Source: Candidatus Enterousia sp.
Lineage (GTDB): Bacteria; Pseudomonadota; Alphaproteobacteria; Rs-D84
Direction: 5' to 3'
Assembly (NCBI GenBank): GCA_045651525.1
Contig: JAZRSO010000031.1
Span: 3,219 to 67,218, forward strand
DNA length: 64,000 nt
In this document: positions 10,398-49,258 of the stretch, one piece after another
How positions within the stretch are numbered: the stretch's first letter is position 1
Layout of the letters: each line of letters opens with the position of its first letter
The notes under the pieces: generated by a model
What the model was told of the DNA's origin: nothing
Databases searched by the model: none
Seen by the model: the letters and a program-made list of their open reading frames with translations, nothing else
Position numbers and translations under genes: made by a program

Positions 10398-10685
10398 ATG
10401 TTCAAACCTTTACATAATTATGTTCTGCTGGAAAGAATCGAAGAAGAAAATATTACTGCTGGCGGAATTATTATCCCAGATAATGCCAAGGAAAAGCCAT
10501 CACGTGGTCGTGTTATTGCGACTGGCAACGGCACATATAATGGTGATGATTTAATCCCATTATCTGTCAAGGCAGGCGATGTCGTTTTATTTGCAAAATG
10601 GGCGGCGACTGCGAACGAAGTTAAAATTGATGGTCGTGACTATGTTTTAATCAAAGAAACAGATATCTTGGGTATCTTGGAATAA
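10398..10685 (+). CDS. groES: co-chaperonin GroES
   Basis: 95 aa, [42 protein letters not shown] upstream. Confidence 0.97.
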
Positions 10686-10701
10686 CAGACGGAGATAAAT
10701 T

Positions 10702-12321
10702 ATGGCAAAAGATATTATTTTTGATACTGAAAAAATGGCGGCCGGTGTTGATAAACTGGCGAACGCGGTAAAAATCACTATGGGCCCCAAGGGACGCACA
10801 GTCGTTATTGAAAAATCATATGGTGCACCTGTTGCAACCAAAGACGGTGTTACCGTGGCCAAGGCCGTGTCATTAAAAGACCCCCAAGAAAACATCGGCG
10901 CACGCATGGTTCAAGAAGTCGCAAAAAAAGCAGGCGATGACGCAGGTGACGGCACAACAACCGCAACTGTATTGGCGCAAAAACTTATCCGCGAAGGTCG
11001 TCGTGTTATCGCCGCAGGTATGAATCCAATGGATGTTAAACGCGGTATAGATATGGCAACTGCGGCCGTTATCGCAGACATTGATGCGCACGCACGCCCT
11101 GTCAAAGACAGCAGCGAAATTGCACAAGTTGCAACTATTTCTGCGAATTCTGATTCAGACATCGGCGAAAAAATCGCAAACGCAATGGAACGCGTCGGCA
11201 AAGAAGGCGTTATTACAGTTGAAGAAGCCAAGGGTCTGGACACAGAAATCGACGTTGTCGAAGGTATGCAATTTGACCAAGGGTTTATGTCGCCCTATTT
11301 TGTTACAAACAGTGAAAAAATGTTGGCAGAACTGGACGGCGCACAAATCTTGGTTTCTGAAAAGAAAATCACGGGTCTGCAGGCATTGTTGCCAATTTTG
11401 GAACCAATTGCCCAGTCTGGCAAACCACTGTTGATTATTGCCGAAGATGTTGAATCCGAAGCATTGGCAACATTGGTACTGAACCGCCTGCGTGGTGGGT
11501 TAAAGGTTTGCGCGGTCAAGGCACCTGGATTTGGTGACAGACGCAAAGAAATGCTGAAAGATATTGCGATTGTTACAGGCGCAACTGTTATTTCTGATGA
11601 TATGGGTATGACATTTGAAAACATCAGCCCAATGGTACTGGGCAGTGCAAAAAAAGTCGTTGTTTCCAAAGACTCTACCCTGTTGGCGCACGGTGGCGGT
11701 GATAAATCCGCGATTGACGCACGTGCAGACGAAATCCGTGTTGCTATTGCCGCATCAACCAGTGATTACGACCGTGAAAAACTGTCTGAAAGATTGGCAA
11801 AACTGGTCGGTGGTGTTGCTGTTATCAAGGTTGGTGGCATGACCGAAGTCGAAGTAAAAGAAAAGAAAGACCGTGTTGATGACGCACTGGCTGCGACACG
11901 TGCCGCTGTGGCCGAAGGTATCGTTGCCGGTGGCGGTATTGCACTGGTACGCGCAGTGGCTGCACTGGAAAATTTAACAGGCGCAAACACAGACCAAAAT
12001 GTTGGTATTGATATTGTACGCCGTGCAATTATTGCGCCATGCGCCCAGATTGCTGAAAACGCTGGCACATCTGGCGAAATTGTTGTGGGCAAGGTTATGG
12101 AATCATCTGATTACAACTTTGGTTACAACGCACAATCTGGCGAATATGTTGACATGATGGCGGCGGGCATTATTGACCCGGCCAAGGTTGTCAAGACAGC
12201 AATCGCAGCGGCGGCCAGCACAGCTGGTGTAATGCTGACCACGGGCGCAGTTATGACAGAAATCCCCGAAGAAAAACCATCCACCCCACCAATGGCGGGT
12301 GGCATGCCAGGAATGATGTAA
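10702..12321 (+). CDS. groEL: chaperonin GroEL
   Basis: 539 aa with [10 protein letters not shown] and a C-terminal GGMPGMM tail. Confidence 0.98.
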
Positions 12322-12347
12322 AAAATCCCCCAAACGGGGGATTTTTT
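12322..12347 (+). terminator. intrinsic terminator after groEL (palindromic, A-tract/T-tract flanked)
   Basis: aaaaaTCCCCCaaacGGGGGAtttttt directly after the groEL stop. Confidence 0.8.
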
Positions 12348-12367
12348 ATTGTTTTTACAAAATAAAG

Positions 12368-12396
12368 TTGAAAATCCAAATAAAATACAATAGAAT
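12368..12396 (+). promoter_or_regulatory. sigma70-type promoter of cassette 1
   Basis: TTGAAA (12368..12373), 17-nt spacer, TAGAAT (12391..12396). An identical sequence lies at 21716..21744. Confidence 0.55.
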
Positions 12397-12637
12397 CCGC
12401 CTTGAACGAACAGGGATGTCCGTTCGGGGCCTTCATAAGCCCACCAGAAAGCGGTGTCAAAAAAAACGACACTGTATCCGTCAGACACAAGGCGCGGATG
12501 CGTCTTTTATATTCCCCAACCGCGTTGTCGGGGAGCCGTCAGTGTATACAACAGGGTTTCCCCGAAGACTGACGGGATCAGACTTTTTGGTGATTTATGA
12601 ACTCCCCGACCATCATTCCTGTGATGGTCTTTTTTTA
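12397..12637 (+). promoter_or_regulatory. structured 5' leader RNA ending in an intrinsic terminator (riboswitch/attenuator candidate, class unknown), copy A
   Basis: Several local hairpins plus the long-range helix 12442..12451/12583..12592. Terminator gaccatca-ttcctg-tgatggtc + T7 at 12608..12636, 26 nt before the ATG. A second copy at 21745..21985 carries compensatory changes. Confidence 0.65.
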
Positions 12638-12662
12638 ACAAAAAAATACGGGGATGTATATC

Positions 12663-15600
12663 ATGGCGAAAAAAATTGCACGTTTACCAGCAAAGTCAAA
12701 AACGGCATTAAAAAAAATTATTACAGTAAAAAACGCAGACGGTGACCCAGATACCACCGCAGAAATTCTAATCCAAAATAAAATCAAATACACACCAAAG
12801 GTATCTGTGATTATACCTGTGTATAATGTCGAGCAATATTTGCGTGAATGTTTGGATTCTGTTGTAAATCAGACCTTGCGTGAAATTGAAATCATCTGTG
12901 TTGATGACGGTTCAACTGACAATTCGCTGGACATCTTGAAAGAATACGCCAGCAAAGACAACCGTATTACAGTTATAAAACAACAGAATCTGCATGCAGG
13001 CGTCGCCCGCAACGCAGGCCTGTCAGTTGCCCGCGGGGAATACTTATCGTTCCTGGACAGCGACGATTTCTTTGAATTGAATATGTTGGAAGTGGCGCTG
13101 AATGCCTGCATAGTAGATAATGTAGATATGGCTATTTGGGGCGGAAAAGCTTTCGAAAATGGTAACTATAAAATTTTGAACTGGGTATTTGACACAAAAC
13201 AAATACAAAATTTAAAGCTTTTTTCAAGCGCCGACAAAGAAATTGCTGCGCGAGTATTTCAAATTATATGCGGCTGGCCAACAAATAAGCTTTACAGCTC
13301 AAAATTATTAAAAAAATCTAAATTTCGCTTTTCTTCCGCACATCATCATAACGACACATCTTTTGTGATGTCTAATGTTGTTTTTGCCACAAAAATGACG
13401 TACATACAAGACTTATATTACATTTACAGAAGAAATAGCAATAGTATTAGCGCGAACAAAGACAAACAAGTTGCTGCTTTTGCACAAAGTCTGATAGATA
13501 CATATAATAATATAAAAAAACTTAAAGTATATCCACAAATTGAGCGTAGTTTTATAAACTATGTTGTAGATTTTTCAGTTCATTATTACGACTCTCTTCG
13601 ATTTAAAGAATCTAAAGAAGAAGCAATAAAATTATGCACAGAGTTATATAATAAATTTGTTCAAGATAAGGAAGTTAGTTATTTTTATAACAAAGAAAAA
13701 TATTACAAGTTTAAAAACTCCATTTGTAACATAGACAATGAAATTCCTGTGATATTATCCTCAGACGACAATTACGCACCTTATATGTATGTAACTATGT
13801 TATCGATATTAAAAAATGCATCCAAATCTAGTTTTTATGACTTTTATTTGCTTATTCCTGGCGATTTTTCAAAAAAAAATAAAAAAAATATTTTACAATT
13901 AAAAAACAAATATAATTGTGACGTACATTTTATAAACTTGAACGATACTTTTAAAAACACTAAAATGTCTATAAAACATATTAGTTATGTGACTTATTTT
14001 AGACTTCTTGCTGCTAATTTATTACCCGCCAAATATTCGAAATGTATATATTTGGATACAGATATTTGCGTTTGCTCTGATTTGAATAAATTATACGAAT
14101 TTGATATTGAAGACAATTATGTTGCTGGCGTACCAGCAGCCGCATACATTTTTAATAAAGATATGCACATAAAAAGATTAAAACTCCAATCTGTTGATAC
14201 TTATATAAATGCCGGTGTTTTGATTATGAACTTGAAAGAAATAAGAAAAGATAATCTTACAGAAAAATTCTTGTCTTTAATGAACAATAATTACGAATCA
14301 CAAGATCAGGACATTGTAAATGTTGCTTGTTATAAACGAATAAAAATATTGCCGTTAAGATTTAATTTGATGACCAAATACGCAGGGCTATTTAATCAAA
14401 AACTGCAATCTTACACTGCGTTAAAAGAAATATACGAAGAATCAAACATAAAAGAAGCTCTAGAAAAACCTGTGATAATACATTTTGCAAATCCTGAAAA
14501 ACCATGGCAAAATAAAAAATTACCACTGTCCGATATATGGTGGTCATATGCATATGCAACTCCGTATTTTCATAAAAAACGTAATATAAAACCATACCTG
14601 CTGTTTCCGTATTATCTGATTGCGATGGTGTTTATGAAGTATATTAAAATGCCTGTGTTAAAGTTTGTTAAACATACTAAACAAATATGGTATTCGCACA
14701 GCCATCGTGGAAAAATGGATATGCTGAACAAAAATTTCACAAATATTATGCAATCAGTAACATCTGTTAAAAACGATATGACAAATCAAATAACACAGAT
14801 AAAAAATCAGCAAAGCAATCTGGAAAAACAAATTGCAGATTTAAGACACACAACTGGTGTAAAATCAAATGACTTGTCACAACAGATTGCTGATTTTCAA
14901 TCAAACGCGTCACAAAACAGCGATGATTTGGTGCAAAAAATCATCGATTTAAATACTGTAACAGAAAACAAATCAAACGACCTGTCACAGCAGATTGCTG
15001 ATTTTCAATCAAGCGCATCGCAAGGTAACGATGCCTTAGCGCAAAAAATCATCGATTTAAATACCGTGACAGAAAGTAAATCAAACGACCTGTCACAGCA
15101 GATTGCTGATTTTCAATCAAACGCGTCACAAAATAACGATGCCTTGGCGCAAAAAATCATTGATTTAATAAATACAACAAAAGACATCCCTGATACAATT
15201 GCGCAACATGCGTCAGAACAGATAAAGGCGATACAACATAATGTTGAAACATTAAATCAACAAAACAAGGACACTCAATCCAATATTATCAATACTGTTG
15301 ATCAGATTAAAAAACACGCTGATGAATTGACAGTAATGAATTCCGAACCGTATTGGGCGCATGTTTATCATGACACAACAGCTAATACAACATGGCTGAA
15401 AAACAAAAGTGTTTCACCTGGACGCTGGGCGATTTCATACATCGTGTTGTATGTGTTGTACAGAATTTTGGATGAAGTAAAGCCAAAATCTATACTGGAA
15501 TGTGGATTGGGGCAATCGTCCAAACTGACGATACAATATGCAGATTCACATAACGCAGATTTAACAATTTGCGAGAATAATCCAGAATGGTTGTCTTTCT

Positions 15601-15986
15601 TTCAACGTCAATTCCCGACCGCGGACAAATACACAACTATTCTTGATACAGAAATGGTTAATATTGTTCCAGAACATGAATCTAGAACCTATGCCAATTT
15701 TAAACCGACAATTGGAGATAAAAAATTCAATTTGGTCTTAATTGATGGGCCACTGGGAAGTCCACATTATTCACGTCCTGAAATTTTGGATATTGTGGAT
15801 AATCTGGATAAATCGTTCGTAATATTGCTGGATGACATGAACAGAATTGGCGAACAGGAAACGTGGCAATTATTAAAACAAAAATTACACAGCAAAGGCA
15901 TTGAATTCAAAGAACGCAAATATTCATCCGACAAAACAGTTGGTTTGATATGCTCGATGGATTTGGCTTATCTAACATCGTTATAA
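12663..15986 (+). CDS. giant multidomain glycosyltransferase: GT2 + GT8 + hydrophobic anchor + 3x36-aa coiled-coil repeats + SAM-methyltransferase-like C-terminal domain
   Basis: GT2: VSVIIPVYNVEQYL..VDDGSTDNS..LDSDD. GT8: IPVILSSDDNYAPY..YLDTDICV..NAGVLIMN..QDQDI. Anchor: KPYLLFPYYLIAMVFMKYI. C-terminus: ILECGLGQSS..LVLIDGP..LLDDMNR. The track ORF starts at 12654, but ATG 12663 has better SD spacing. Confidence 0.85.
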   Translation: MAKKIARLPAKSKTALKKIITVKNADGDPDTTAEILIQNKIKYTPKVSVIIPVYNVEQYLRECLDSVVNQTLREIEIICVDDGSTDNSLDILKEYASKDNRITVIKQQNLHAGVARNAGLSVARGEYLSFLDSDDFFELNMLEVALNACIVDNVDMAIWGGKAFENGNYKILNWVFDTKQIQNLKLFSSADKEIAARVFQIICGWPTNKLYSSKLLKKSKFRFSSAHHHNDTSFVMSNVVFATKMTYIQDLYYIYRRNSNSISANKDKQVAAFAQSLIDTYNNIKKLKVYPQIERSFINYVVDFSVHYYDSLRFKESKEEAIKLCTELYNKFVQDKEVSYFYNKEKYYKFKNSICNIDNEIPVILSSDDNYAPYMYVTMLSILKNASKSSFYDFYLLIPGDFSKKNKKNILQLKNKYNCDVHFINLNDTFKNTKMSIKHISYVTYFRLLAANLLPAKYSKCIYLDTDICVCSDLNKLYEFDIEDNYVAGVPAAAYIFNKDMHIKRLKLQSVDTYINAGVLIMNLKEIRKDNLTEKFLSLMNNNYESQDQDIVNVACYKRIKILPLRFNLMTKYAGLFNQKLQSYTALKEIYEESNIKEALEKPVIIHFANPEKPWQNKKLPLSDIWWSYAYATPYFHKKRNIKPYLLFPYYLIAMVFMKYIKMPVLKFVKHTKQIWYSHSHRGKMDMLNKNFTNIMQSVTSVKNDMTNQITQIKNQQSNLEKQIADLRHTTGVKSNDLSQQIADFQSNASQNSDDLVQKIIDLNTVTENKSNDLSQQIADFQSSASQGNDALAQKIIDLNTVTESKSNDLSQQIADFQSNASQNNDALAQKIIDLINTTKDIPDTIAQHASEQIKAIQHNVETLNQQNKDTQSNIINTVDQIKKHADELTVMNSEPYWAHVYHDTTANTTWLKNKSVSPGRWAISYIVLYVLYRILDEVKPKSILECGLGQSSKLTIQYADSHNADLTICENNPEWLSFFQRQFPTADKYTTILDTEMVNIVPEHESRTYANFKPTIGDKKFNLVLIDGPLGSPHYSRPEILDIVDNLDKSFVILLDDMNRIGEQETWQLLKQKLHSKGIEFKERKYSSDKTVGLICSMDLAYLTSL
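14862..15185 (+). repeat. 3 tandem 108-bp (36-aa) in-frame repeats inside the giant glycosyltransferase gene
   Basis: KSNDLSQQIADFQSNASQNSDDLVQKIIDLNTVTEN occurs three times. Unit starts are about 14862, 14970 and 15078. Confidence 0.9.
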
Positions 15987-16013
15987 AAAATCCCCCGTTT
16001 GGGGGATTTTTTT
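15987..16013 (+). terminator. intrinsic terminator, inverted copy of the groEL terminator hairpin
   Basis: aaaaTCCCCCgtttGGGGGAttttttt. It is shared by the convergent fabZ. Confidence 0.8.
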
Positions 16014-16024
16014 ATGAAATGGTT

Positions 16025-19261: not shown

Positions 19262-21670
19262 GTGGCATATATGGCAACACTGACACTTGGAAAATCTGTA
19301 ACAACTGACGCTGTTCGCAGCAAAAAGGGAGATTCCGTTTTTGTTGAACGACGTCGTCGTGTTATCGCACCTGACAGCAAGGAATTGCGTGACGAACCAA
19401 AGGCGCCTGTGGCACAAAAAAATGCCGCAGATGAAAAACTGCGTGCAGTGTTGGCCGCCGCCAAGGCACGTGAAGAAGAACGTAAAAAGCGCGAGGCCGA
19501 AGAAGAAGCCGCACGTGCTGCACGCGCTGCTGAAATCGAACGCGAAAACCGCGAATACGAAAAAGTAAAATCGCAATTAGCGGCACGCGAAACAACACCA
19601 CAGGCATCAGAACCTGCCGAAGAAGCGCCACAAACACGTTCTAAACCTGCACCACAGCAAAAAGTATTTACAAATAACGCTGTTGCTGGGGGCGCGCGTA
19701 AAAATCGTGATAATGACGATGAAGAACGCGGGAATAAGTTTAATAACTCTAAAAAAGACTTTAAGAAGTCTGGCAAAATTCATCTGCGCGACATTGTTAT
19801 CGGTGATGGCGATGACGAGGATGAAATCGGTTTGCGTGGCACAAATCGCCGCCGCTCCGAAGCGTCATTAAAACGTTTCCGCGAAAAAGCACGCGCGGTA
19901 TTTTCTGCCCCACAAAAAGTAGAACGCGTTGTCACATTGGGCGATACAATTACTGTCAAAGATCTGGCTGCTGCAATGGCAGAAAAAGCAGGTAATGTTA
20001 TCAAAAAACTGATGGAAATGGGTATGATGGTATCTGTAAATCAGTCTATTGATGCAGATACAGCAGAACTTATCGCTGGGGAATTTGGTGCAACTGTTAA
20101 ACGCGTTGATGTAAAACCATATGCAGAAATCTTGGAACGTGAACCAAACCCAGAAAACATGACGCCACGCGCGCCTGTTGTTACGGTTGTGGGACACGTT
20201 GACCATGGTAAGACATCACTGTTGGACGCATTCCGTAACGCAAATGTTGCCGCAGGCGAAGCTGGCGGTATTACCCAGCACGTTTCTTCGTACGAAGTTA
20301 AAACACAAACAGGTCCAATGATTACTTTCTTGGACACACCTGGTCACGAAACATTTACTGCTATGCGCGCACGTGGTGCCCAGATGGCAGATATCGTTGT
20401 GTTGGTTGTGGCTGCAAACGATTCAATTATGCCACAGACAATCGAAGCAATAAATCATATTCGCGCGGCCAAGGTTCCATTTATCGTTGCAATCAATAAA
20501 ATTGACCTGCCCGAAGCGAATCCAATGCGCGTAAAAACAGACTTGTTACAACAAGAAGTTCAGGTCGAAGAAATGGGTGGCGATGTTCAATGCGTTGAAA
20601 TTTCTGCAACCAAGAAAATCGGACTGGACAAACTGGAAGAAGCAATCTTGTTACAGGCAGAAATGATGGAATTAAAGGCAGACGCAGAAATGCCAGCTGT
20701 TGCATACGTGGTCGAAGCAAAACAAGAAAAAGGTTTGGGTTCTGTCGCAACTGTCTTGATGCGTCAAGGAACATTGAAAATTGGCGACGTGTTCGTTGTT
20801 GGCGAAACATTTGGTCGTGTTCGTGGCTTGATAAATTCAAACGGCGAACGCGTAAAATCTGTACGTCCTGGTCAGCCTGCAATTGTACTGGGGTTGGACT
20901 CGGTTCCGGGCGCAGGCGATGAACTGCGCGTTATGGAAACAGACGCACAGGCACGCGAAGTTGCTGCATACCGCGCACAAAAGTCCAAAGACAAGGCAAA
21001 CGCAGTTAAACGTTCCAGTTTGGAAGAACTGTTCGCCAAACGTGATGATAACAAAAAACTGATATTGCCAATTATATTGCGTGCAGACGTACAGGGTTCT
21101 GTTGAGGCAATTTCTGACATGGTCAAAGAAATCAATACTGACAAGGTTGGTGTTGAAATACTGTCGTCTGGCGTGGGACAAATCACCGAAGGCGACATCC
21201 GTCTGGCGACTGCATCTGGTGCGATTATTATCGCGTTTAATGTTCGTGCAGATTCTGTGGTTCGCGATATGGCACGTGCAGGTGGCGTTGATATCAGATA
21301 TCACAATGTTGTATATCGTATCACAGACGAAATCAAAGAAATCTTGTCTGGTAAATTGGCACCAGAAAAACGCGAAACATTTATCGGATACGCAGATGTC
21401 ATTGCCCTGTTCACAGTTGGCAAGGGTATCCGCGTTGCAGGTTGCCGTATGACCGAAGGCACCATCAAGAAAGACGCATTTGTGCGACTGTTGCGTAACA
21501 ATGTTGTTATATACGATGGTAAAATCGGACAACTGCGCCGCGAAAAGAACGAAGTCAAAGAAGTTTCTGGTGGTGTTGAATTCGGTATGTCTTTTGATAA
21601 GTATAACGACCTAAAAGAAGGCGACCGGGTCGAATGTTACGAAGTTGAAGAAGTTCGTGCAGAAATCTAA
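19262..21670 (+). CDS. infB: translation initiation factor IF-2
   Basis: G domain [24 protein letters not shown]. Start is either GTG 19262 or ATG 19271. Confidence 0.95.
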
Positions 21671-21672
21671 AC

Positions 21673-21696
21673 ATCCCCCAAACGGGGGATTTTTTT
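21673..21696 (+). terminator. intrinsic terminator after infB, same hairpin as after groEL
   Basis: aTCCCCCaaacGGGGGAttttttt. Confidence 0.8.
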
Positions 21697-21715
21697 ATGT
21701 TTTTACAAAATAAAG

Positions 21716-21744
21716 TTGAAAATCCAAATAAAATACAATAGAAT
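21716..21744 (+). promoter_or_regulatory. sigma70-type promoter of cassette 2
   Basis: TTGAAA-17-TAGAAT, identical to 12368..12396. Confidence 0.55.
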
Positions 21745-21985
21745 CCGCCTTGAACGAACAGGGATGTCCGTTCGGGGCCTTCATAAGCCCAGCTAAAATC
21801 AGTGTCAAAAAAAACGACACTGCATCCGTCAGGTACAAGGCGCGGATGCGTCTTTTATATTCCCCAACCGCGTGGTCGGGGAGCCGTCAGTGTATACAAC
21901 AGGGTTTCCCGAAGACTGACGGGATCAATATTTTAGCTGATTTATGAACTCCCCGACCATCATTCCTGTGATGGTCTTTTTTTTA
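21745..21985 (+). promoter_or_regulatory. structured 5' leader RNA with terminator, copy B
   Basis: Near-identical to 12397..12637 apart from a few substitutions. Four of these preserve pairing in helix 21790..21799/21930..21939. Terminator hairpin 21955..21976 + T8. Confidence 0.65.
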
Positions 21986-22007
21986 CAAAAAAATGGAGTT
22001 GATAAAA

Positions 22008-25000
22008 ATGTTTAAAAAGCATAGTTGGGAATATAAATTATTATCAAAATCAAAGGAATTCAATAAAAAATGGTATTTACAAACATACCCTGATGTGGCC
22101 AAGGCAAAAGTTGACCCAATTGAACATTATATCAACCACGGCTGGAAAGAAGGAAGAAATCCTGGCCCAACTTTCAATACAGTCTCTTATCTTACATTAA
22201 ATCCGGACGTTCGTAATGCAAATATAAACCCATTGATTCATTGGGAACGTTTTGGCAGGCAAGAAGGACGTAACACAGGTACCAATTATGGACAAGTGCC
22301 AAAACAACAAAATAAAACCGTAAAAATTGTTGATGCCGTAATATTTCCAAAGGATGCAAAAAAATATACCTATGACACCAAAAATATTAAAACAAATAAA
22401 AAATATAAAAGAATTGCTGTTTTTGCGTCTTATTCGGGTGATGGCACAATTGCAGACTATGTTGTTTACTATTTAAAAGAATTGAAAAAGGTTTGCGACG
22501 CTATTGTTTTTGTTGCAGACAATCCAATAATCCCAGCGGAGGCCGAAAAAATAAAAGATATTGTCATATATGCCCAATTTGAACGTCATAACGAATATGA
22601 CTTTGGTTCATATAAACGCGGTTATATATGGTTAAAAAAACAAGGATTATTGAAACGTTGTGATGAATTGTTGTTGTGTAATGATTCTTGCTATGGCCCT
22701 GTGTATCCATTCAAGGATGTCTTTGATAAAATGTCTAAAAAAGATTGTGATTTTTGGGGGATGATACAAAACGATGATGTAAAATATCATTTGCAATCTT
22801 GGTTTTATCTCTTTAAACATAATGTTTTAACGTCCAGATTGTTGGATAAATTTTTTGAAAAAGTACAACATCAAAATAGTTTTTGGGATTATGTTTTTAA
22901 ATATGAATTTGAACTAACAAGATTCTTAATAGACAACGGGTTTGTCGCAGACGCTTTTCTAGATTTAAAATTAAAAGATTTAGAATGGCTCTATACAAAA
23001 AGTGGATACGGCAATATAACTGTCGCTCCCCTGACATTGATTCAAAATTACAACTTCCCATTTATTAAGATAAAATGCTTTACCAATGGTTTTACATATG
23101 CTTTAGAAGAACAGCCTAGACAAGTTTTAGATTTCTTAAAAACAGCAAATCGAATATTGTATGATTTGATTATAAAAGATCTAAAACGCAGAAAGGTTTA
23201 TTCAAATATTCTGAATACAGATATAGATTTTCAGATAAAAAATCACGACATAATATCGTTTGATATATTTGATACATTATTAATACGTCCGTATGTTCAG
23301 CCAACTGATTTGTTTTATCATATGGAAAAGATTTATAATATTCCTGGATTCGCTGACGCTCGTATAAAAGCCGAATTATACGCCAGAGAAAAATCAAATA
23401 AAAAAGATATAACATTCGATGAAATATATGAAAATCTATTGCCAAAATATCAAAAATTAAAAGCAACAGAATTGCAAATGGAACAAAATTGTTTACAAGC
23501 AAATCCGTTGGTTTTTGATATTTATCAAAAAGCACTCAAACAAAACAAAACGATCATTATTGTATCTGATATGTACTTGTCTTCAAAATTTTTAAAACAA
23601 GTGTTACAACAAAAAGGATATGAAAAAATTGATGACATTTATGTTTCGGGGGAATATGGAAAAACAAAGGGCGACGGCAGCCTGTTTGAACATATATTGA
23701 AAAAACTTGCTATAAAACCCGAAAAAATGTTGCATATTGGCGACAATCACTACAGCGACATAAAAAAACCAAGAGAATACGGTATAAGTGCATATCAAGT
23801 ACCAAAATATATTGACTTATTCTTTATGCATGGTGGCAATTTAAAATACAAGCAATTTTATGAAACTCAGCCAGATTTTATGCGCAGTTATATTGTGGCT
23901 TTGATTGCACAAAATCAAATGACCAACAAAATGTCTTATTGGCAACAAATTGGTTATAGTTTGGCAGGCCCCTTATGTTTGGGTTATACGCAAATGATAG
24001 CCAAAGAAACAAAACTAAATGATATTGATACATTATTATTCGTTTCACGCGATGGTTATTTATTACAAAAAGCATACAATAAAATTTGCAATAAACCCGT
24101 CGAAAATCGATACATATATGCACCTAGAATATTAAATCTGAAATTATTTGGGGATCATGGAAATCAACCTCATTATATTCAATCGTATATGGATATATTA
24201 TTAAAAAACATTCCGGATTTAAATATTAACACAAACAAACAAACAATAGACTTCAAACAACGTAAGATTGTTGATTGGCATACAAAAAACAAAACTGAAT
24301 ACGAAGCTTATATTAAAACGTTAAAAATTTACGGAACAAATATCGCATCAGTAGATATGACAACTGGCGCATATACATCGCAAAAAATATTAGAGCGAGT
24401 ATTCAAAGATAGATATAAAATGTCTTTTTATAGTGCTTGTTTCGTTAAACGTCCAGAATATAAACATGTTTCTTATTTGCCGGATTTAATATTTCCTGCT
24501 GCACAAGAAAATATTATCAATTTAACAGAATTGTTAATAACAGCACCAGAACTGCCTGTGGTTGATATAAAAGATAAAAAACCTGTATACAAAAAATCAA
24601 ATGCACATGATGAATATCGTATAAAAATTATACAATCCATAGAACAAGGCGTGATGAAATTTATAGATGATTTCTGTATAAAATGCGGCACTATAATAAA
24701 AGACGATATGTGCGAAATTCCTGTACATGATGTCTGGTTTTTACTGGAGTCCTATTGTAGGTTTTTATCAAATACTGATAAATCATATCTTAAACATGTG
24801 TATCACAGTGCAGATATTGAGAATAAAGAATTTGTTTCAATGTTAGATAAGATAATACAACAGTACGAGCCAGAACAATCTGTACATATGCAACACACAC
24901 AAGAGCATGTACAAAAACAAAAAAATAAGAGACACAAATTAAAGCCATATTTATTATTTCCATACTATTTACTGGCTACTCTGGTTATGAAATATATTTT

Positions 25001-25025
25001 ATTACCAATAAAAAAACGAAAATAA
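22008..25025 (+). CDS. giant polysaccharide-modification protein: N-terminal NPDV/EGR repeats + rhamnan-synthesis-F (RgpF)-like domain + HAD-like domain + C-terminal anchor
   Basis: YPDVAKAKVDPIEHYINHGWKEGRNP and NPDVRNANINPLIHWERFGRQEGRN. RgpF-like: IAVFASYSGDG..LLCNDSCYGPVYPF..DFWGM. HAD: ISFDIFDTLLIRPY..IGDNHYSDI. Ends with KPYLLFPYYLLATLVMKYILLPIKKRK. The track ORF starts at 21993, but ATG 22008 has SD GGAG. Confidence 0.8.
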   Translation: MFKKHSWEYKLLSKSKEFNKKWYLQTYPDVAKAKVDPIEHYINHGWKEGRNPGPTFNTVSYLTLNPDVRNANINPLIHWERFGRQEGRNTGTNYGQVPKQQNKTVKIVDAVIFPKDAKKYTYDTKNIKTNKKYKRIAVFASYSGDGTIADYVVYYLKELKKVCDAIVFVADNPIIPAEAEKIKDIVIYAQFERHNEYDFGSYKRGYIWLKKQGLLKRCDELLLCNDSCYGPVYPFKDVFDKMSKKDCDFWGMIQNDDVKYHLQSWFYLFKHNVLTSRLLDKFFEKVQHQNSFWDYVFKYEFELTRFLIDNGFVADAFLDLKLKDLEWLYTKSGYGNITVAPLTLIQNYNFPFIKIKCFTNGFTYALEEQPRQVLDFLKTANRILYDLIIKDLKRRKVYSNILNTDIDFQIKNHDIISFDIFDTLLIRPYVQPTDLFYHMEKIYNIPGFADARIKAELYAREKSNKKDITFDEIYENLLPKYQKLKATELQMEQNCLQANPLVFDIYQKALKQNKTIIIVSDMYLSSKFLKQVLQQKGYEKIDDIYVSGEYGKTKGDGSLFEHILKKLAIKPEKMLHIGDNHYSDIKKPREYGISAYQVPKYIDLFFMHGGNLKYKQFYETQPDFMRSYIVALIAQNQMTNKMSYWQQIGYSLAGPLCLGYTQMIAKETKLNDIDTLLFVSRDGYLLQKAYNKICNKPVENRYIYAPRILNLKLFGDHGNQPHYIQSYMDILLKNIPDLNINTNKQTIDFKQRKIVDWHTKNKTEYEAYIKTLKIYGTNIASVDMTTGAYTSQKILERVFKDRYKMSFYSACFVKRPEYKHVSYLPDLIFPAAQENIINLTELLITAPELPVVDIKDKKPVYKKSNAHDEYRIKIIQSIEQGVMKFIDDFCIKCGTIIKDDMCEIPVHDVWFLLESYCRFLSNTDKSYLKHVYHSADIENKEFVSMLDKIIQQYEPEQSVHMQHTQEHVQKQKNKRHKLKPYLLFPYYLLATLVMKYILLPIKKRK

Positions 25026-25048
25026 AATCCCCCGTTTGGGGGATTTTT
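25026..25048 (+). terminator. intrinsic terminator, inverted copy of the infB terminator hairpin
   Basis: aaaTCCCCCgtttGGGGGAttttt. Confidence 0.8.
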
Positions 25049-25223
25049 ATTGATTTTGTAAATATTATGTTTTATAATTTGCATATGTTTAACAGCAAAT
25101 TTATCTTTTCTGTAAATAAATGTTGGCGCGTTGCCGCCTGATATTTTTTATACCCTGCTCTATTTTGGGCTTTCATTTTTAGCAAAAATTCATTAAAATT
25201 AAACACAAGAAAAGGTAATTATT

Positions 25224-34652: not shown

Positions 34653-34729
34653 GCATCCATAGCTTAACTGGATAAAGCATCTGACTACGGATCAGAAGAC
34701 TGAGGGTTCGAATCCTTCTGGATGCGCCA
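34653..34729 (+). tRNA. tRNA-Arg (anticodon ACG), CCA encoded
   Basis: Hand-folded cloverleaf. Acceptor GCATCCA/TGGATGC, D arm GCTT..AAGC, anticodon arm TCTGA-CTACGGA-TCAGA, T arm GAGGG-TTCGAAT-CCTTC, 77 nt. Followed by hairpin + T7. Confidence 0.92.
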
Positions 34730-35183: not shown

Positions 35184-35288
35184 CAACAAACAAACAAACA
35201 AACAAACAAACAAACAAACAAACAAACAAACAAACAAACAAACAAACAAACAAACAAACAAACAAACAAACAAACAAACAAACAAACA
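35184..35288 (+). repeat. tetranucleotide microsatellite (CAAA)25
   Basis: 25 perfect CAAA units at 35187..35286 plus partial units. They lie between ATG 35144 and ATG 35289. Confidence 0.98.
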
Positions 35289-36581
35289 ATGAAAATGTTT
35301 TTGTCTGTTTTTACGGCTTTGTTAATTACATCTGTAACACCAGTGTTTAATGCCATGGCCGCCACACCCCGAAGGAACGGCACCACAACAACAACCGCAC
35401 GCAGTAAATCAAACACCCCAACAACCGCATTTACCGACGCAGAAAAGAAATTAAAAGATTTAGAAAACGCATTGAAAGCCAAATTGGCAGAAATAAAAAA
35501 AGCAGAAGAAGACAAAGAAGCAAAAACGCCAGATAACACAATTGACACAAGCCAAACAATAGACAAAAAAGAAGATTGCGAAAAAATAACAGAACTCAGG
35601 TCTGGCACAGAATGTTATAAAGACGCCCAAACCGGTAAATGGAAAATTCGCTGGACATTTAAGGTTGGCGACGATTGCCCGGTAAAGGACTGCAGTGTTG
35701 ACAAGGCTGTGACAAAATGCGTATATGAAAAGGTAACAGAATCTTCGTTTAGTTGCAAGATTACAGAATGCATTGACACCCATGAAGTTATCGGGGGCGT
35801 TTGCAAGAAAAAAGAATCCGACTCAGCAAATGAAGAAAACAATCAGCCAGACGAACATGCAAAATGCTGGGAAAATGTAGATTTTGCAACTGCTGGTAAC
35901 TGGACTGGTACCTATTGCGATATTTCAGAGTGCGAAGACGGCTATAAAGTAGACCGCAGCAGAACAGCATGTGAAGAAGACGAACAGCCAGACGAACATG
36001 CAGAATGCTGGAAAGAGGTAGATTACGCAACCGCCGGAACATGGTCAGGTACCTATTGCAAAATTACCCAATGTCAAAATGGGTATCATGTGTCGGAAAA
36101 CGATTTGTCAAAATGTGAAGAAAACTGTTGGGAAAAACAAGACAGAAACGCGAAGTATGGACGCGTGTTAAATAATACTTGCACCATTACAGAATGTAAA
36201 AGGGGTTATTATATCTATAATAATAAATGCGAGGAAGAAATAAGAACATCCGGCTGTCACTACGATTTTGATGAACAAAAATATGGTGTCGGATACAAAT
36301 GGATACAAGAATCCGAAAAAGATACAGAATCAGACGGAAAACAATACTGTAAAATCACAAAATGTCACCCGTGCACGACCTTGAAAGAGAACAAATGCGT
36401 TTTAACTAACAAATGCATGCTAGTAGAAGATACTGTTGTCGCTTGTTGGGATTTAGGCGGCCAACCTGAAAAAGCAAATTATGAAAAAAGATATTGGTGT
36501 TATTGTTCTGATGGCTACAAAAGAGATTATTTTCAATTTACAACCCAACGGTGCGTTAATAACGAGCTTATAGATATGTAA
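35289..36581 (+). CDS. secreted Cys-rich repeat protein (unknown family); an alternative SD-equipped start at 35144 is out of frame in this sequence
   Basis: Signal peptide MKMFLSVFTALLITSVTPVFNAMA, a charged linker, then repeated C..I(T/S)(E/Q)C..GY......C modules, including a 141-bp tandem duplication (35844/35985). Confidence 0.8.
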   Translation: MKMFLSVFTALLITSVTPVFNAMAATPRRNGTTTTTARSKSNTPTTAFTDAEKKLKDLENALKAKLAEIKKAEEDKEAKTPDNTIDTSQTIDKKEDCEKITELRSGTECYKDAQTGKWKIRWTFKVGDDCPVKDCSVDKAVTKCVYEKVTESSFSCKITECIDTHEVIGGVCKKKESDSANEENNQPDEHAKCWENVDFATAGNWTGTYCDISECEDGYKVDRSRTACEEDEQPDEHAECWKEVDYATAGTWSGTYCKITQCQNGYHVSENDLSKCEENCWEKQDRNAKYGRVLNNTCTITECKRGYYIYNNKCEEEIRTSGCHYDFDEQKYGVGYKWIQESEKDTESDGKQYCKITKCHPCTTLKENKCVLTNKCMLVEDTVVACWDLGGQPEKANYEKRYWCYCSDGYKRDYFQFTTQRCVNNELIDM

Positions 36582-38892: not shown

Positions 38893-38933
38893 TTTTTTGC
38901 CTTCCTATATTTTTTATAATGTTTTATTAAAAC

Positions 38934-39271
38934 GTCGGGTTTCTGGTGCCAGGTACCCGACAGACCCCGCAATAACTTAAACGAATGTGGTCAACAATCG
39001 CCAACCATATTCAAGCCATTATTAGGCAGCCATTGCAATGCGAACATTGTCGTTCGCAGCGATTCTATCGCCATTCAGTTTTTAGTCGGCTTTTAACGAC
39101 GCCATGTCGGATTCAACCAATTTGTCTTTCATCATCTGTCGAATCTATGTCAGCCCCATAACCAAATATGACACAAATCATATCAAGTAATGGTGGAGCT
39201 GTGGGGTACCGCCCCCCAGTCCAAAATGACTATTGCACAACGGCTTCAGAATCATCATCACTTGCGTGACG
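38934..39271 (-). ncRNA. ssrA: tmRNA (ssrA), circularly permuted two-piece type
   Basis: Minus strand. The acceptor piece ends ..GGACUGGGGGGCGGUACCCCACAGCUCCACCA at 39191. The coding piece starts GGGGCUGACAUAGAUUCGAC at 39157. Tag frame GCUGCGAACGACAAUGUUCGCAUUGCAAUGGCUGCC UAA UAA = AANDNVRIAMAA** (39060..39019). The G3:U pair is present in the acceptor stem. Confidence 0.88.
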
Positions 39272-39276
39272 GGGTA

Positions 39277-40347
<1,071 letters not shown>

Positions 40348-45660: not shown

Positions 45661-45740
45661 ACCAAAACCGCCGTTTGGCGGTTTTATTTTACCTGGGTCC
45701 TGGGGTCATCCGCCCAAGGCGGGAATCCAATGCGCCGCAA

Positions 45741-46085
45741 ACAGTTAAACCCACCCCGTCACTGCGTGACACCCCTCCCCGCGGGGTGCGGAACGCACCG
45801 GCGTCGGAGGGGAACTTGTCACCGGTTTTAAGTTCTCCTCCCTGGGAGGAGTACGGCGTAGCCGGGAGGTGGGTATGACAATGTTTTTTATTTTCCTTGT
45901 CACGCCTATCGAAGACAGTTAAACCCACCCCGTCACTGCGTGACACCCCTCCCCGCGGGGTGCGGAACGCACCAGCGTCGGAGGGGAACATGTCACCGGT
46001 TTTAAGTTCTCCTCCCTGGGAGGAGTACGGCGCAGCCGGGAGGTGGGTATGACAATGTTTTTTGTTTTCCTTGTCACGCCTATCG
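45741..46085 (+). repeat. two tandem copies of a 174-bp GC-rich palindromic element (R1)
   Basis: Unit starts at 45741 and 45915. There are nested hairpins (gtcac/gtgac, cccctcc/ggagggg, ggtgcg/cgcacc, ctcctcc/ggaggag) enclosed by cccacc../..ggtggg. Confidence 0.9.
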
Positions 46086-46286: not shown

Positions 46287-46850
46287 TTATTCCGCAACCT
46301 GTACCGTATCGTCATATACAGAATAGACAGTTCCCTTGTAACGTATTTTCAGCTTTTTATCTGTATCTTTGTTCATTGGCACATCGGCTGTGGTTATATT
46401 ACCAAACAAATCAGCCACACCGTCATGATTGGTATCAAAATGCAATGCAGGACTGGTGCGTTTCACAGGACTTAGATACATAATATCTTTGTCCACGTGC
46501 AGTTTTGCACCACTGCATTGTGAAACTTCCCACATACCGGTTGGGGCAGACGCACCATCTGGGCATGCGTTTATACCAACATCATCTGTTTCAGAATATG
46601 TATATTCGCCACCAGGGCAGAAATGATTTGCCGGACATATTACACATGTTTCAGATGTCCGTGGCAAATAATACCCACGTTCACAGGTGTAATTGGACGC
46701 CTCGAACACTGCGACAAATTGCATTGTGCCACTGGGGATAATATTGCACATTTTCGGCACAGTTTGTGTACCAATTGGCACAACAACATCAGCCAAGGCG
46801 ACGCTTGGCATAAAAATCATCAGCAATAACGCAATTTTCGATATAAACAT
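46287..46850 (-). CDS. secreted Cys-rich protein (shares its N-terminal module with the upstream gene)
   Basis: Signal peptide MFISKIALLLMIFMPSVALA. YTCERGYYLPRTSETCVICPANHFCPGGEY..ACPDG. Confidence 0.75.
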   Translation of the reverse strand: MFISKIALLLMIFMPSVALADVVVPIGTQTVPKMCNIIPSGTMQFVAVFEASNYTCERGYYLPRTSETCVICPANHFCPGGEYTYSETDDVGINACPDGASAPTGMWEVSQCSGAKLHVDKDIMYLSPVKRTSPALHFDTNHDGVADLFGNITTADVPMNKDTDKKLKIRYKGTVYSVYDDTVQVAE

Positions 46851-46900
46851 TTAATGTATCACGTATTCTGTGGGGAAAATCCCCACAGAATCACGATTTA

Positions 46901-48373
46901 TTATTGTGTTATCAGTTTCCAACCCTTGAATGTATAACCCGGTTTTGTTGGGATGTAATCAGGTACATTTACATCGCTACCATACAAACACATTCCAGAG
47001 ATATTTTCAGAACCATCATCAGGATTCCAATCAATACCTATCTTGTTCGCATCGCACATATATGTGATATAGGCGCTATGTGAATTAATATATGTTCCAA
47101 TAAGAATCGCTGCGTTCTTGAGCTCTAATACAAAATTTGTCAAATCATTCTTAGCAGCAACATACATCAAAAAAACATTTAAGCTAGAGATTGCTGAATC
47201 GTGTGCACAGCCTGTGTTACAGGCTTCCATATCTCCATCAAAATTTATATCACTGCCTTCATGTCGTATATCAAGATCTGACATAGGTGTATCATTAACA
47301 TTTGTGTACGTGGTATAGCACATATGTGCCTCGTCCGATGCGTCACATTCGGATTTACCGGATATACTGATTTCCCACCGTGGACTAAATATGAACCAAT
47401 CTCCATTTTGTGCTGATTCACGAAACGCCGCCAATTCAGGACTTTGCTGTGCAGCAATATCGCAATCTATCTTTTCTCCTGCTAAGCTCGATAAAAGAAA
47501 ATTAGCAGTGCGTATATATTCTGCCTGTTGACAAGTTTCTTTCCCGAAACCATCCTTGCTATATAAATAGCCATCGCTTGGCAATTGATTAACATTTTCA
47601 TCAACAAAAGCCTGAGCAAGTGTTTCGAATGGTTGCCAAAAGCCATTCATTCGTTCTGGATGCTGTACATTGTCAATAGCAACTTTAACTTGTAATTGTA
47701 CTTCATTTGAAAACGAATTATAAATCGATTCCCAATTATTATACAGCTCTGACTTTGCTTCTTCCAGCATTTCTGGGGTATAGTCTTCTGCGCTTCCGCC
47801 ATTTACATTAACCAATACTTGTACCAGTTGTTCATCTGTTAAATCTGGGCGTTTGTGATAGCCCGTATCGCATTGAAAGCTTAATGAACATATTGGTGAC
47901 GTGGCATCGCACGAACCGCCATAAAAATGTTTACCAGACGCTGTTTCATTACCGTGGGTAACGTTTATTGCGTGTAACGGTACAGGCTGTTGTGTACATG
48001 TCGCAGAACATCCCTGGTAACAATCGTTTTGACTGTCAGAACCACCAACTGATGATGCATAATCAGTGGGGCATTGGTATGTGCCTTTTTCTTCGCTTTC
48101 AACTGTAAAAATACCACCTGGACAGTATGAGCCACTGGCACATGGGGTACATGCAATGTTTTCACCGTCAACCATTAAATATTGACCCGCCGGACAGTCA
48201 TATTCATTCAATGACCATGTCGCAATAGTGTTCGCAGTTGCACCATTTTCTGCTGTACCCAAAACATCTGCGTTACAAGTGCCGGCGCCACCTGTAATGA
48301 TTTCATCGTCTGCATACGCAGTGCCGATAACACCAATTGCAAACATTGTGTATAAAATATTCTGTAATCGCAT
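46901..48373 (-). CDS. secreted Cys-rich protein with a C-terminal Listeria-Bacteroides-type repeat
   Basis: Start ATG 48373 (SD AAAGGAA) gives signal peptide MRLQNILYTMFAIGVIGTAYA. YDCPAGQYLMVDGENIACTPCASGSYCPGG. C-terminus CLYGSDVNVPDYIPTKPGYTFKGWKL. Confidence 0.8.
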   Translation of the reverse strand: MRLQNILYTMFAIGVIGTAYADDEIITGGAGTCNADVLGTAENGATANTIATWSLNEYDCPAGQYLMVDGENIACTPCASGSYCPGGIFTVESEEKGTYQCPTDYASSVGGSDSQNDCYQGCSATCTQQPVPLHAINVTHGNETASGKHFYGGSCDATSPICSLSFQCDTGYHKRPDLTDEQLVQVLVNVNGGSAEDYTPEMLEEAKSELYNNWESIYNSFSNEVQLQVKVAIDNVQHPERMNGFWQPFETLAQAFVDENVNQLPSDGYLYSKDGFGKETCQQAEYIRTANFLLSSLAGEKIDCDIAAQQSPELAAFRESAQNGDWFIFSPRWEISISGKSECDASDEAHMCYTTYTNVNDTPMSDLDIRHEGSDINFDGDMEACNTGCAHDSAISSLNVFLMYVAAKNDLTNFVLELKNAAILIGTYINSHSAYITYMCDANKIGIDWNPDDGSENISGMCLYGSDVNVPDYIPTKPGYTFKGWKLITQ

Positions 48374-48397
48374 ATTCCTTTCCTTTCGTTTTTTTGT

Positions 48398-48440
48398 AAA
48401 AAAAACAGACCAATGACGCCATTTATGCGTCATTGGTCTG
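48398..48440 (-). terminator. intrinsic terminator hairpin inside the 5' leader of the 46901..48373 gene
   Basis: Minus strand: cagaccaatgacgc-ataaatg-gcgtcattggtctg (14-bp perfect stem) + T8, ending 24 nt before the ATG. Confidence 0.65.
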
Positions 48441-48493
48441 TTACCAAACGCGAACATACGTTCGCGTAAATTTTACCCGGCAGGGTTATTCCC

Positions 48494-48780: not shown

Positions 48781-48853
48781 TCGCTTCGCGGCACTTCGTA
48801 GTCCTGCCTGCGCAGCAATGACAAAGAAGAAAGTAGGAATGACAAGAAAAAAC

Positions 48854-49122
48854 AAACCCACCCCGTCACTGCGTGACACCCCTCCCCGCGGGGTGCGAAA
48901 CGCACCGGCGTCAGAGGGGAACTTGTACACAGGTTTTAAGTTCTCCTCCCTGGGAGGAGTACGGCGCAGCCGGGAGGTGGGTATGACAGAGTTTTTTTGT
49001 TTTCCTTGTCACGCCTATCGAAGACAGTTAAACCCACCCCGTCACTGCGTGGCACCCCTCCCCGCGGGGTGAGGGACGCACCGGCGTCGGAGGGGGACTT
49101 GTCACCCGGTTTAAGTTCTCCT
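48854..49122 (+). repeat. R1 copies 3 (full) and 4 (truncated)
   Basis: aaacccaccccgtcactgcgtgacacccctccccgcgggg.. recurs at 48854 and 49030. Copy 4 stops after ..ggtttaagttctcct. Confidence 0.9.
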
Positions 49123-49258
49123 GCCTGCGCTAGGCGTTACAAAACGTGCCTACGAAATGTCGTAAAAAAAATCCCCATTTCGGTTTTTTTACACAGAATA
49201 AACCGTTGACAATCTGTGTATTTGTGCTACAACAATATCAGAAAAAAAGGATACCATT

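Follow-up and report, generated by a model that had tools for sequence, protein, structure and literature searches.

A conserved doubly pseudoknotted leader RNA with attenuator anatomy upstream of a glycosyltransferase gene of Candidatus Enterousia, and its kinship with sRNA-Xcc1

Organisation of the leader and of its second copy

The window considered in the current analysis is a stretch of 64,000 nucleotides from the alphaproteobacterium Candidatus Enterousia sp. (GenBank assembly GCA_045651525.1, contig JAZRSO010000031.1, positions 3,219 to 67,218 of the forward strand). Between groES-groEL (10398-12321) and a large open reading frame (ORF, 12654-15986) with glycosyltransferase domains of the GT2 and GT8 families lies a leader RNA of about 235 nt (12403-12636, plus strand). 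This leader belongs to a conserved class of doubly pseudoknotted RNAs with a clear attenuator anatomy that is widespread on the mobile elements of proteobacteria. It is a divergent member of a superfamily whose 3' domain is known in Rfam as sRNA-Xcc1 (RF02221). More than 100 homologues have been collected, which fall into a low-GC subfamily of gut Alphaproteobacteria and a high-GC subfamily of plasmids and integrative and conjugative elements (ICEs). All the sequence features listed in a preliminary description of this region are present where they had been located.

The GT2 + GT8 gene, recognised from its domains and its ORF (12650-15986 on the plus strand, Shine-Dalgarno sequence included), encodes 1110 residues, or 1107 from the probable start, the ATG at 12663, which is preceded by the Shine-Dalgarno sequence GGGGA (12650-54). 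This ATG stands about 26 nt after the end of the leader terminator, as had been counted earlier, and no credible promoter is seen between the terminator (12608-12636) and the gene. The G+C content of the gene is 20-38%, far below that of the neighbouring genes. Its C-terminal half contains a 108-nt tandem repeat at 14862-15168 (2.8 copies, 87% matches) that gives rise to 36-residue protein repeats.

A promoter and a terminator have been identified by consensus scan where the preliminary description had placed them, and both are conserved in the relatives. The promoter is of the sigma-70 type (TTGAAA-17-TAGAAT, 12368-12396, plus strand), agrees with the consensus at 10 of 12 positions and places the transcription start near 12402-12404. 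The intrinsic terminator (12608-12636, -13.7 kcal/mol) is a GC-rich hairpin of nine pairs followed directly by a T7 tract, U7 in the RNA; it reads GACCATCA-TTCCTG-TGATGGTC in the DNA and GACCAUCA-UUCCUG-UGAUGGUC in the RNA. A 244-nt segment containing the leader folds at -94 kcal/mol (z = -6.1 against dinucleotide shuffles), and the opposite strand folds about equally well.

The 5' end of the RNA forms the hairpin P0 (GAACG..ACA with UGU..CGUUC, 12404-12425), with a GGGA loop of the GNRA type and 8-9 covarying pairs. A CsrA site considered for this loop, ACAGGGAUGU, is a resemblance only, and the loop of the high-GC relatives is not GGA. The next hairpin, Pa (GGGC/GCCC, 12427-12442), also seen by covariation, exposes the loop UUCAUAA (12432-12438), which pairs with the junction strand J (UUAUGAA, 12595-12601) to form the pseudoknot PK1; J too is supported by covariation. 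The 5' strand of the 10-bp long-range helix LR, CACCAGAAAG (12442-12451), finds its partner at 12583-12592 and has been assigned by comparison of copies and by an anchored test described below. It is followed by the covarying hairpin Pv1 (CGGUGUC-A8C-GACACUG, 12452-12474) and by the conserved hairpin Pt (AAGGCGC-GGAU-GCGUCUU, then UUUUAU; 12489-12510), which looks like an internal terminator. Bona fide Xcc1 loci have a strong U-run after Pt, most low-GC relatives a weak one. The pairing tatccg/cggatg proposed previously for this part is not conserved, the conserved hairpin being AAGGCGC/GCGTCTT at 12489-12506.

The 3' domain is a three-way junction closed by the helix P1, which is made of GUCGGGGAG (12527-12535) and CUCCCCGAC (12602-12610) and is supported by covariation and by alignment with the Xcc1 model. 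With the last three nucleotides of its 3' strand, GAC (12608-12610), P1 reaches into the base of the terminator stem. Immediately upstream, UCCCCAAC (12513-12520) can pair with 12527-12534, that is with the 5' strand of P1, and this anti-P1 hairpin has one A-C mismatch in the copies of the window. The first arm of the junction, P2 (12536-12575), comprises the helix CCGUCAG/CUGACGG and an inner GGG/CCC helix, both covarying; its internal loop is asymmetric and nearly invariant (5' side A12546 U A. A A. A, 3' side A12565 and A12566). The second arm is the short hairpin P3 (AUCA/UGAU, 12577-12594), in which five of five pairs covary across the superfamily. Its loop, CUUUUUGGUG (12583-12592), is the 3' strand of LR, and LR is therefore a second pseudoknot. 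P1 crosses the long-range helix, so that the pseudoknot suspected in the preliminary description is borne out.

A second copy of the whole module, 91-95% identical to the first, has been identified after infB (21668-21994, plus strand). This copy B comprises the terminator palindrome of the upstream gene, a promoter (21716-21744), the RNA (21751-21984) with its P1 (21875-83 with 21949-57) and the terminator (21955-21984), and it is followed by a gene of the RgpF/HAD type (1010 residues, plus strand, starting at 21993) that is unrelated to the GT2 + GT8 gene. The left edge of the duplicated module is a bidirectional terminator palindrome, after groEL in the first copy (12320-12349), which recurs at 15983-16012, 21668-21704 and 25013-25049. 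The similarity between copies extends from this palindrome through promoter, RNA and terminator and ends about 10 nt before each Shine-Dalgarno sequence. Within the RNA the copies differ at 16 positions, seven of them in the 20 nt of LR (12442-12451/12583-12592 against 21790-21799/21930-21939), and all four changed LR pairs stay paired (C-G to G-C, A-U to U-A, G-U to A-U and G-C to U-A). Outside LR, a G-U pair becomes A-U in Pv1 and a U-to-G change lengthens P1. LR is nearly copy-specific across the family, like a barcode, which hints at selection against cross-pairing between copies. Copy B, PK1, the anti-P1 hairpin and the weak match to sRNA-Xcc1 described below are additions to the preliminary description.

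Searches with the IF-2 protein of the window as probe place the nearest public genomes among metagenome-assembled genomes that bear the names Candidatus Enterousia or uncultured Alphaproteobacteria and come from the guts of ruminants, humans and rodents. Exact-match queries with the GT and GroEL proteins gave no record. The closest relative, L001 (98% IF-2 identity, 86-90% DNA identity), does not have either leader-plus-gene unit (window 12320-16023 and 21668-25049; L001:6100-6790 and 12400-12440). One unit is replaced there by an unrelated gene for a small secreted protein and the other is plainly absent. Each unit in the window is flanked by a common terminator palindrome, AAAAATCCCCCAAACGGGGGATTTTTT. 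Members of the family directly after infB are also found in two other loci (L077 and L032), which suggests a recurrent cassette site.

Homologues, covariation and kinship with sRNA-Xcc1

Most of the homologues lie upstream of genes for secreted proteins, lipoproteins or glycosyltransferases in gut Alphaproteobacteria, and the remaining ones upstream of regulators and nucleases on plasmids of Rhizobiaceae. Further Enterousia loci with homologous elements were detected by nhmmer, and a scan of metagenomes with a degenerate pattern revealed at least 120 more loci; the scan of viral contigs with the family pattern gave no match. The lineage holds multiple copies of the class, two in the window and 25 matches in 1.57 Mb of related loci. 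A blastn search with a high-GC member retrieved 191 plasmid records, 146 of them conjugative, mostly from Agrobacterium and Rhizobium. In Rhizobium etli CFN42 a homologue (p42d 193,101-193,301, upstream of RHE_RS30285) is situated immediately upstream of a helix-turn-helix (HTH) regulator. Another homologue is carried by pAt of Agrobacterium tumefaciens near parB/ardC.

Members of the low-GC gut subfamily are 215-260 nt long and have a promoter and terminator as in the window copies. Their downstream genes are diverse; about half encode proteins with N-termini resembling signal peptides, and they include lipoproteins, GT2 enzymes and one autotransporter. Among 59 low-GC relatives the -35 element TTG and the -10 element TAtAaT lie at a fixed distance from the first helix, with T at the first -35 position in 49. 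Of the 59, 57 have a T-rich tract, with six or more T among the ten nucleotides that follow the stem. In 54 the terminator stem is followed, no more than 200 nt away and on the same strand, by a Shine-Dalgarno sequence and start codon; 46 of them have it within 45 nt, and the median distance is 29 nt. With the gene start so near the terminator there is no room for another promoter, and the gene must therefore be reached by read-through. An orthologous GT2 gene (MKISVIIPAYNC...) is preceded by a member of the family in several species of Enterousia, and in the leaders of these orthologues the pairings are kept and the paired sequences differ between species. In two loci the element is situated downstream of a tRNA gene, beginning 78 nt after it in L029 (tRNA at 439-512) and about 250 nt after it in L035 (1014-1087).

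The high-GC subfamily is found in plasmid or ICE contexts upstream of genes of the DUF2285/RovC type, HTH and ECF-sigma regulators, GIY-YIG and other genes. High-GC loci (L169, L093, L140, L101, L152 and others) have ACCA directly after P1 and a conserved hairpin, GCGG-GGGCGCA-CCGC, about 30-60 nt after P1 and just before the downstream Shine-Dalgarno sequence. This hairpin would represent a distinct expression platform, and the gene behind it is often that of a 95-residue protein with the DUF2285/RovC_DNA-bd domain. The motif GGGGAGCCUGUGG / GAUCACC of high-GC members resembles, by eye only, the 3' end of 16S rRNA. Nothing relevant was found in the literature on non-coding RNA associated with DUF2285, nor on a riboswitch associated with symE and integrons.

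The structure has been evaluated on two alignments. The first, A4, is a MAFFT alignment of 59 non-redundant low-GC members, from the structure of which a covariance model, R1, was built with low-GC members only. The second, A5, holds 102 matches of R1, including high-GC members and two bona fide Xcc1 loci, fitted to the model (97 distinct rows). In A4 the structure, of 59 pairs, is 88.6% paired, as against 79.0% in column shuffles and 37-45% with slid partners, and it has 370 double-change cells against 120 in shuffles. The corresponding values in A5 are 91.6% against 72.8%, and 953 cells against 274. Covarying pairs occur in every helix of A5, in support of the three-way junction of P1, P2 and P3, and five of the seven pairs of PK1 covary although this helix had been left out of the covariance model. 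G-U cells number 536 and A-C cells 106, an excess that identifies the sense strand as the one that folds.

LR required separate treatment, its sequence being hypervariable with complementarity kept, and both MAFFT and Infernal place it out of register. In a test anchored on its two strands the mean complementary run is 9.1 bp for cognate and 4.3 bp for non-cognate pairs, and a run of at least 7 bp is present in 97% of the former and 5% of the latter. A search for the longest complementary run over wide upstream windows was uninformative, because the AU-rich sequence and common motifs raise the background, and was replaced by the anchored tests. The homologue search and alignment proposed with the preliminary description have found most of its helices kept in the relatives. 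Conservation or covariation in 59-97 homologues is seen for gaacg/cgttc, cggtgtc/gacactg, ccgtcag/ctgacgg, the 10-bp long-range helix, gtcggggag/ctccccgac and the terminator. As expected of a riboswitch, a covarying structured domain is combined with invariant unpaired nucleotides; the near-invariant unpaired bases cluster at the junction and in the internal loop of P2 (AUA-AA-A opposite GAA), and base conservation makes the latter a candidate binding site.

In the Rfam scan in gathering mode no family reaches its gathering score at the leader, and in gathering scans of the loci of 26 relatives only tRNAs are found, none reaching the Xcc1 threshold. A permissive scan reveals a match to sRNA-Xcc1 at 12527-12618 (34.8 bits, E-value 1.7e-4, against a gathering score of 53), the closing helix of which is P1 (gtcggggag/ctccccgac). 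As the element falls below the family's own threshold, it is not filed as RF02221. The model alignment shows the architecture of Xcc1, with a 9-bp closing stem, a first arm with an AUACAA/GAA loop and a second arm formed by a short hairpin, and all three helices covary in the 97 sequences. Bona fide Xcc1 loci from Aeromonas, Nitratidesulfovibrio and Neisseria, which score 69-72 bits, carry the same upstream hairpin, the loop of which pairs with the junction, followed by a strand that pairs with the loop of the second hairpin. Rfam has no family that covers this upstream (5') domain of about 130 nt in the Xcc1 loci.

The reciprocal search with R1 detects two of these loci at their Rfam Xcc1 coordinates, L205 (43.7 bits, E-value 2e-8) and L204 (41.1 bits, full length), and misses the third, L203. 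Bona fide Xcc1 escapes a sequence-only hidden Markov model of the 3' domain, and the kinship is detected by structure-aware models alone.

Proposed switch and competing explanations

The proposed switch centres on the overlap of P1 with the terminator. The 3' strand of P1 shares three nucleotides (GAC, 12608-10) with the terminator base in the window copies and four (GACC) in most relatives; in the family alignment three bases are drawn in both stems, and a fourth can extend the overlap. Owing to this overlap, P1 would be expected to work as an antiterminator once folded. The anti-P1 hairpin is 88% paired in the relatives, often by G-U wobbles. Alignment positions 180/181, which belong to the 5' strand of P1, show covariation on two sides, with the anti-P1 strand and with the 3' strand of P1, so that both alternative helices are under selection. 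For the window copy, the P1 state is calculated at -24.9 kcal/mol (P1 -19.2 and truncated terminator -5.7) and the anti-P1 state at -23.1 kcal/mol (anti-P1 -9.4 and full terminator -13.7), and the two are predicted to be nearly isoenergetic before any tertiary or ligand contribution. Mutually exclusive helices that involve an intrinsic terminator, as in the expression platform of a transcriptional riboswitch, are thereby found in silico.

In the proposed mechanism, transcription would begin at about 12403 from the element's own promoter and the nascent RNA would first fold the anti-P1 hairpin (12513-20 with 12527-34), tying up the 5' strand of P1. Should this hairpin persist, GAC (12608-10) would stay free, the full terminator of 8-9 bp would form and RNA polymerase would stop at the U-tract (~12636), leaving an RNA of about 235 nt. 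Alternatively, the 3' domain may fold as the three-way junction, braced by PK1 and LR to the 5' domain; P1 (12527-35/12602-10) would then displace anti-P1 and hold the bottom pairs of the terminator stem. The leftover hairpin of 5-6 bp would presumably be too weak to terminate, and transcription would enter the glycosyltransferase gene. The P1-folded junction would thus be the antiterminator and the anti-P1 hairpin the anti-antiterminator. The balance might be tipped by a protein, by the kinetics of folding, or by a ligand (small molecule or ion) that binds the invariant P2 internal loop and the junction. Structure and conservation, the overlaps, the promoter and terminator and the linkage to the gene are observed; from them we infer a regulatory use of the alternative folds, with the P1 state as ON, and the existence of a signal. 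The most likely explanation, to which we give about an even chance, is a cis-acting leader that attenuates transcription in the manner of a riboswitch and is ON in its folded state.

A number of observations weigh against this attenuation model. The overlap of P1 with the terminator is only 3-4 nt, and the two stems could possibly coexist by stacking. The U-tract is mostly absent in the high-GC and bona fide Xcc1 relatives, and the terminator platform is therefore specific to one subfamily. The layout of an attenuating leader claimed in the preliminary description is present as promoter, leader, exclusive pairings and terminator; of its two antiterminator pairings, the one involving gatgcgtc has no counterpart in the relatives. 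The riboswitch suggested there has the anatomy of an attenuator and is unproven, the downstream genes (secreted proteins, lipoproteins, GT2 enzymes and an autotransporter in the gut; HTH, DUF2285, ECF-sigma and GIY-YIG on plasmids) being heterogeneous, unlike those of most metabolite riboswitches, and too diverse for a metabolite-specific switch. Their diversity shows no coherent association with one pathway or transport function. The sensing of tRNA, also suggested, is unsupported, no T-box match having been obtained. The label 'unclassified' holds as far as matches at the Rfam gathering level are concerned and does not hold for the 3' domain, given its distant relationship to sRNA-Xcc1. Candidatus Enterousia, moreover, is known from metagenome-assembled genomes only.

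Two findings on Xcc1 itself speak more for a small RNA (sRNA) than for a leader. An 88-nt RNA corresponding to the 3' domain accumulates in Xanthomonas (PMC2996969), and its 5' end is the first base of P1 according to Table 2 of that report and the model alignment. In Xylella five Xcc1 copies stand in tandem without intervening genes, and Xcc1 adjoins isrK and C4 RNAs (PMC12189769). The element could accordingly be primarily an sRNA gene, possibly of dual function, with an efficient terminator and a stable RNA of about 235 nt. Its 3' junction might instead be released, with RNase P as one candidate enzyme, in the form of a tRNA-like RNA (85-100 nt) whose action would be either in trans or, through the barcodes (P3 loop and J), as feedback on the nascent transcripts of its own locus. 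P1 is followed in most members by RYCA (ACCA in 26 of 31 high-GC members; GCCA, GUCA or ACCA in low-GC ones), like the acceptor end of a tRNA, although the window copies have AUCA and not RCCA. The concentration of paralog differences in LR, 7 of 16, is what is expected if copies must not cross-pair. A free-standing sRNA would not be expected to show the close co-oriented linkage to a promoterless gene seen in 54 of 59 relatives, and no target for the P3 loop or J is found within 170 nt downstream, where cognate duplexes reach -15.9 and non-cognate ones -15.6 kcal/mol. On balance we consider an sRNA gene possible and rather unlikely. More improbable is a constitutive 5' untranslated module that travels with gene cassettes and senses nothing, serving promoter supply, protection of the mRNA 5' end, insulation or processing. 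The absence of both window units from the closest relative and their common flanking palindrome agree with it, as do the unrelated, low-GC downstream genes, the recurrence of members after infB in other species and the frequency of the family on conjugative plasmids (146 of 191 records). A stabiliser or insulator needs no covarying pseudoknots, invariant unpaired bases or exclusive helices of equal energy at the terminator, and a strong terminator between a promoter and its sole gene would be costly unless read-through were regulated.

Processive antitermination, in which a folded RNA such as put of phage HK022 or EAR of Bacillus modifies the polymerase to ignore the adjacent terminator and the terminators or Rho sites of long AT-rich genes, has little in its favour beyond the terminator immediately after the element and the nature of the window genes, which are 3 kb long, 20-38% in G+C and devoted to polysaccharide synthesis as in EAR and JUMPstart/RfaH operons. 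Many relatives precede short genes (55-300 residues), Rfam similarity to put or EAR is absent, and the overlap of P1 with the terminator together with the anti-P1 hairpin is better explained by local attenuation; we hold this explanation to be very improbable. Least credible of all, to the point of being nearly dismissed, is an element acting as DNA (whether as a recombination site, as an attC-like site or as a single-strand promoter). It would account for the good folding of both strands and for the ties of the family to integron cassettes, plasmids and cassette-like insertions (bioRxiv 10.1101/2025.06.18.660453). Against it stand the 5 to 1 excess of G-U over A-C pairs on the sense strand, the fixed upstream distance of the promoter, a branched and pseudoknotted structure in place of a long hairpin, and insertion boundaries that coincide with the flanking terminator palindromes and not with the element.

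The boldest reading, which we offer tentatively as improbable but possible, takes sRNA-Xcc1 as just the 3' third of a widespread class of doubly pseudoknotted regulatory RNAs of about 230 nt, with members in Alpha-, Beta- and Gammaproteobacteria and Desulfovibrionia that are carried by plasmids, ICEs, integrons and phages. The class would then respond, as an orphan riboswitch, to some general physiological signal, or else it would be a self-specific regulator; in the latter case the barcode pairings of LR and PK1 would let the processed tRNA-like 3' domain (P1 and RCCA, cut by RNase P) feed back on its own locus alone. It may have been recruited in the genome-reduced Enterousia as a common switch for an estimated 10-20 variable genes for surface proteins and glycans.

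Wider context and comparison with known systems

Other features of the window have also been identified. The minus strand at 38932-39309 encodes a two-piece (permuted) alphaproteobacterial tmRNA (154 bits). A perfect tetranucleotide repeat, (AACA)26 at 35185-35289, abuts the start of a 430-residue ORF (35289-36581) and looks like a slipped-strand phase-variation locus; a tRNA gene is situated nearby (34653-34726). A GC-rich repeat of 174 nt occurs at 45736-46083 and 48843-49192, as two tandem copies 97% identical and two diverged copies (62-65%) that flank minus-strand ORFs (46287-48457). A single unit, with a folding energy of -77 kcal/mol (z = -4.1), has no match in Rfam; it may represent a second family of structured repeats.

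If the attenuation model is correct, the class would be a phylogenetically broad orphan class of cis-regulatory RNAs with well above 100 distinct representatives and a further 191 plasmid records. If sRNA-Xcc1 is indeed a fragment of a larger leader, the reading of the literature on this 'virulence sRNA' would change. For an uncultured gut lineage the element offers a lead to a common control point for variable surface proteins and glycans. On the plasmids of Rhizobium and Agrobacterium it suggests an unstudied level of regulation in front of the DUF2285, HTH and ECF regulators that lie near transfer genes, and the homologues in cultured hosts such as R. etli CFN42 make the proposal directly testable. 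With one part already catalogued and a classical type of mechanism, the class does not count as categorically new; its full architecture, its cis-regulatory reading and its role before surface genes appear undescribed in Rfam 15 and in the literature searched.

Covariance models of the riboswitch and leader classes of Rfam 15 (TPP, FMN, cobalamin, SAM, glycine, c-di-GMP, ykkC, ydaO, T-box and others) give no match in 12300-12700 even at E-values up to 10, in agreement with the preliminary description, which by eye had seen no match to the conserved cores of TPP, FMN, cobalamin, SAM-II, glycine, c-di-GMP-I, ykkC or ydaO. Two low-scoring matches from other families, isrK at 12454-12510 (12.6 bits, E-value 2.8) and Phe_leader on the minus strand, the latter corresponding to the groEL terminator, are noise.

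The phage P1/P7 c4 RNA, with its a1/b1 repeats, and IsrK of Gifsy-1 resemble the element in two respects: a compact RNA exposes two elements to which segments further upstream in the same transcript are complementary, and this compact RNA has an acceptor-like stem followed by NCCA. The c4 RNA is matured by RNase P. No second set of targets (a2/b2) is found near the downstream ribosome-binding site, duplex energies over 170 nt downstream being equal to those of non-cognate controls, and a strict model of the phage P1 c4 or immI type is rejected for lack of a downstream target-site signal. Rfam similarity to C4, c4-a1b1 and c4-2 is absent. The leaders of the JUMPstart/ops-RfaH, Bacteroides UpxY and Bacillus EAR systems are alike in that a long 5' leader precedes AT-rich and probably horizontally acquired genes for glycosyltransferases and surface structures. 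Unlike them, the element has no ops or EAR motif, also precedes short unrelated genes and has its own local terminator.

In its switching part the element is most similar to transcriptional riboswitches of the ON type, such as the pbuE/ydhL adenine riboswitch, in which the 3' strand of the closing helix P1 likewise overlaps the 5' arm of the terminator; by this analogy a stabilised P1 would prevent termination. The expression platform varies between lineages in both. The leader differs from pbuE/ydhL in its much larger size, its two long-range pseudoknots, its extra upstream anti-P1 hairpin and its heterogeneous genes. With sRNA-Xcc1 it shares the three-way junction with a GC-rich closing stem, the AUACAA / GAA loop of the first arm, the short second hairpin and a U-rich junction. 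The association with mobile-element genes is also similar, since Xcc1 precedes, in the same orientation, symE in integron cassettes of Xanthomonas (bioRxiv 10.1101/2025.06.18.660453) and an ORF6N gene in APSE phage (10.1101/2020.03.17.996009). The Rfam model of sRNA-Xcc1 is 87 nt long and does not include the 5' domain, both pseudoknots, the anti-P1 hairpin or the terminator. sRNA-Xcc1 has been described as a trans-acting sRNA, whereas the element of the window stands in front of chromosomal surface genes of a gut alphaproteobacterium, as a leader that runs from promoter to terminator.

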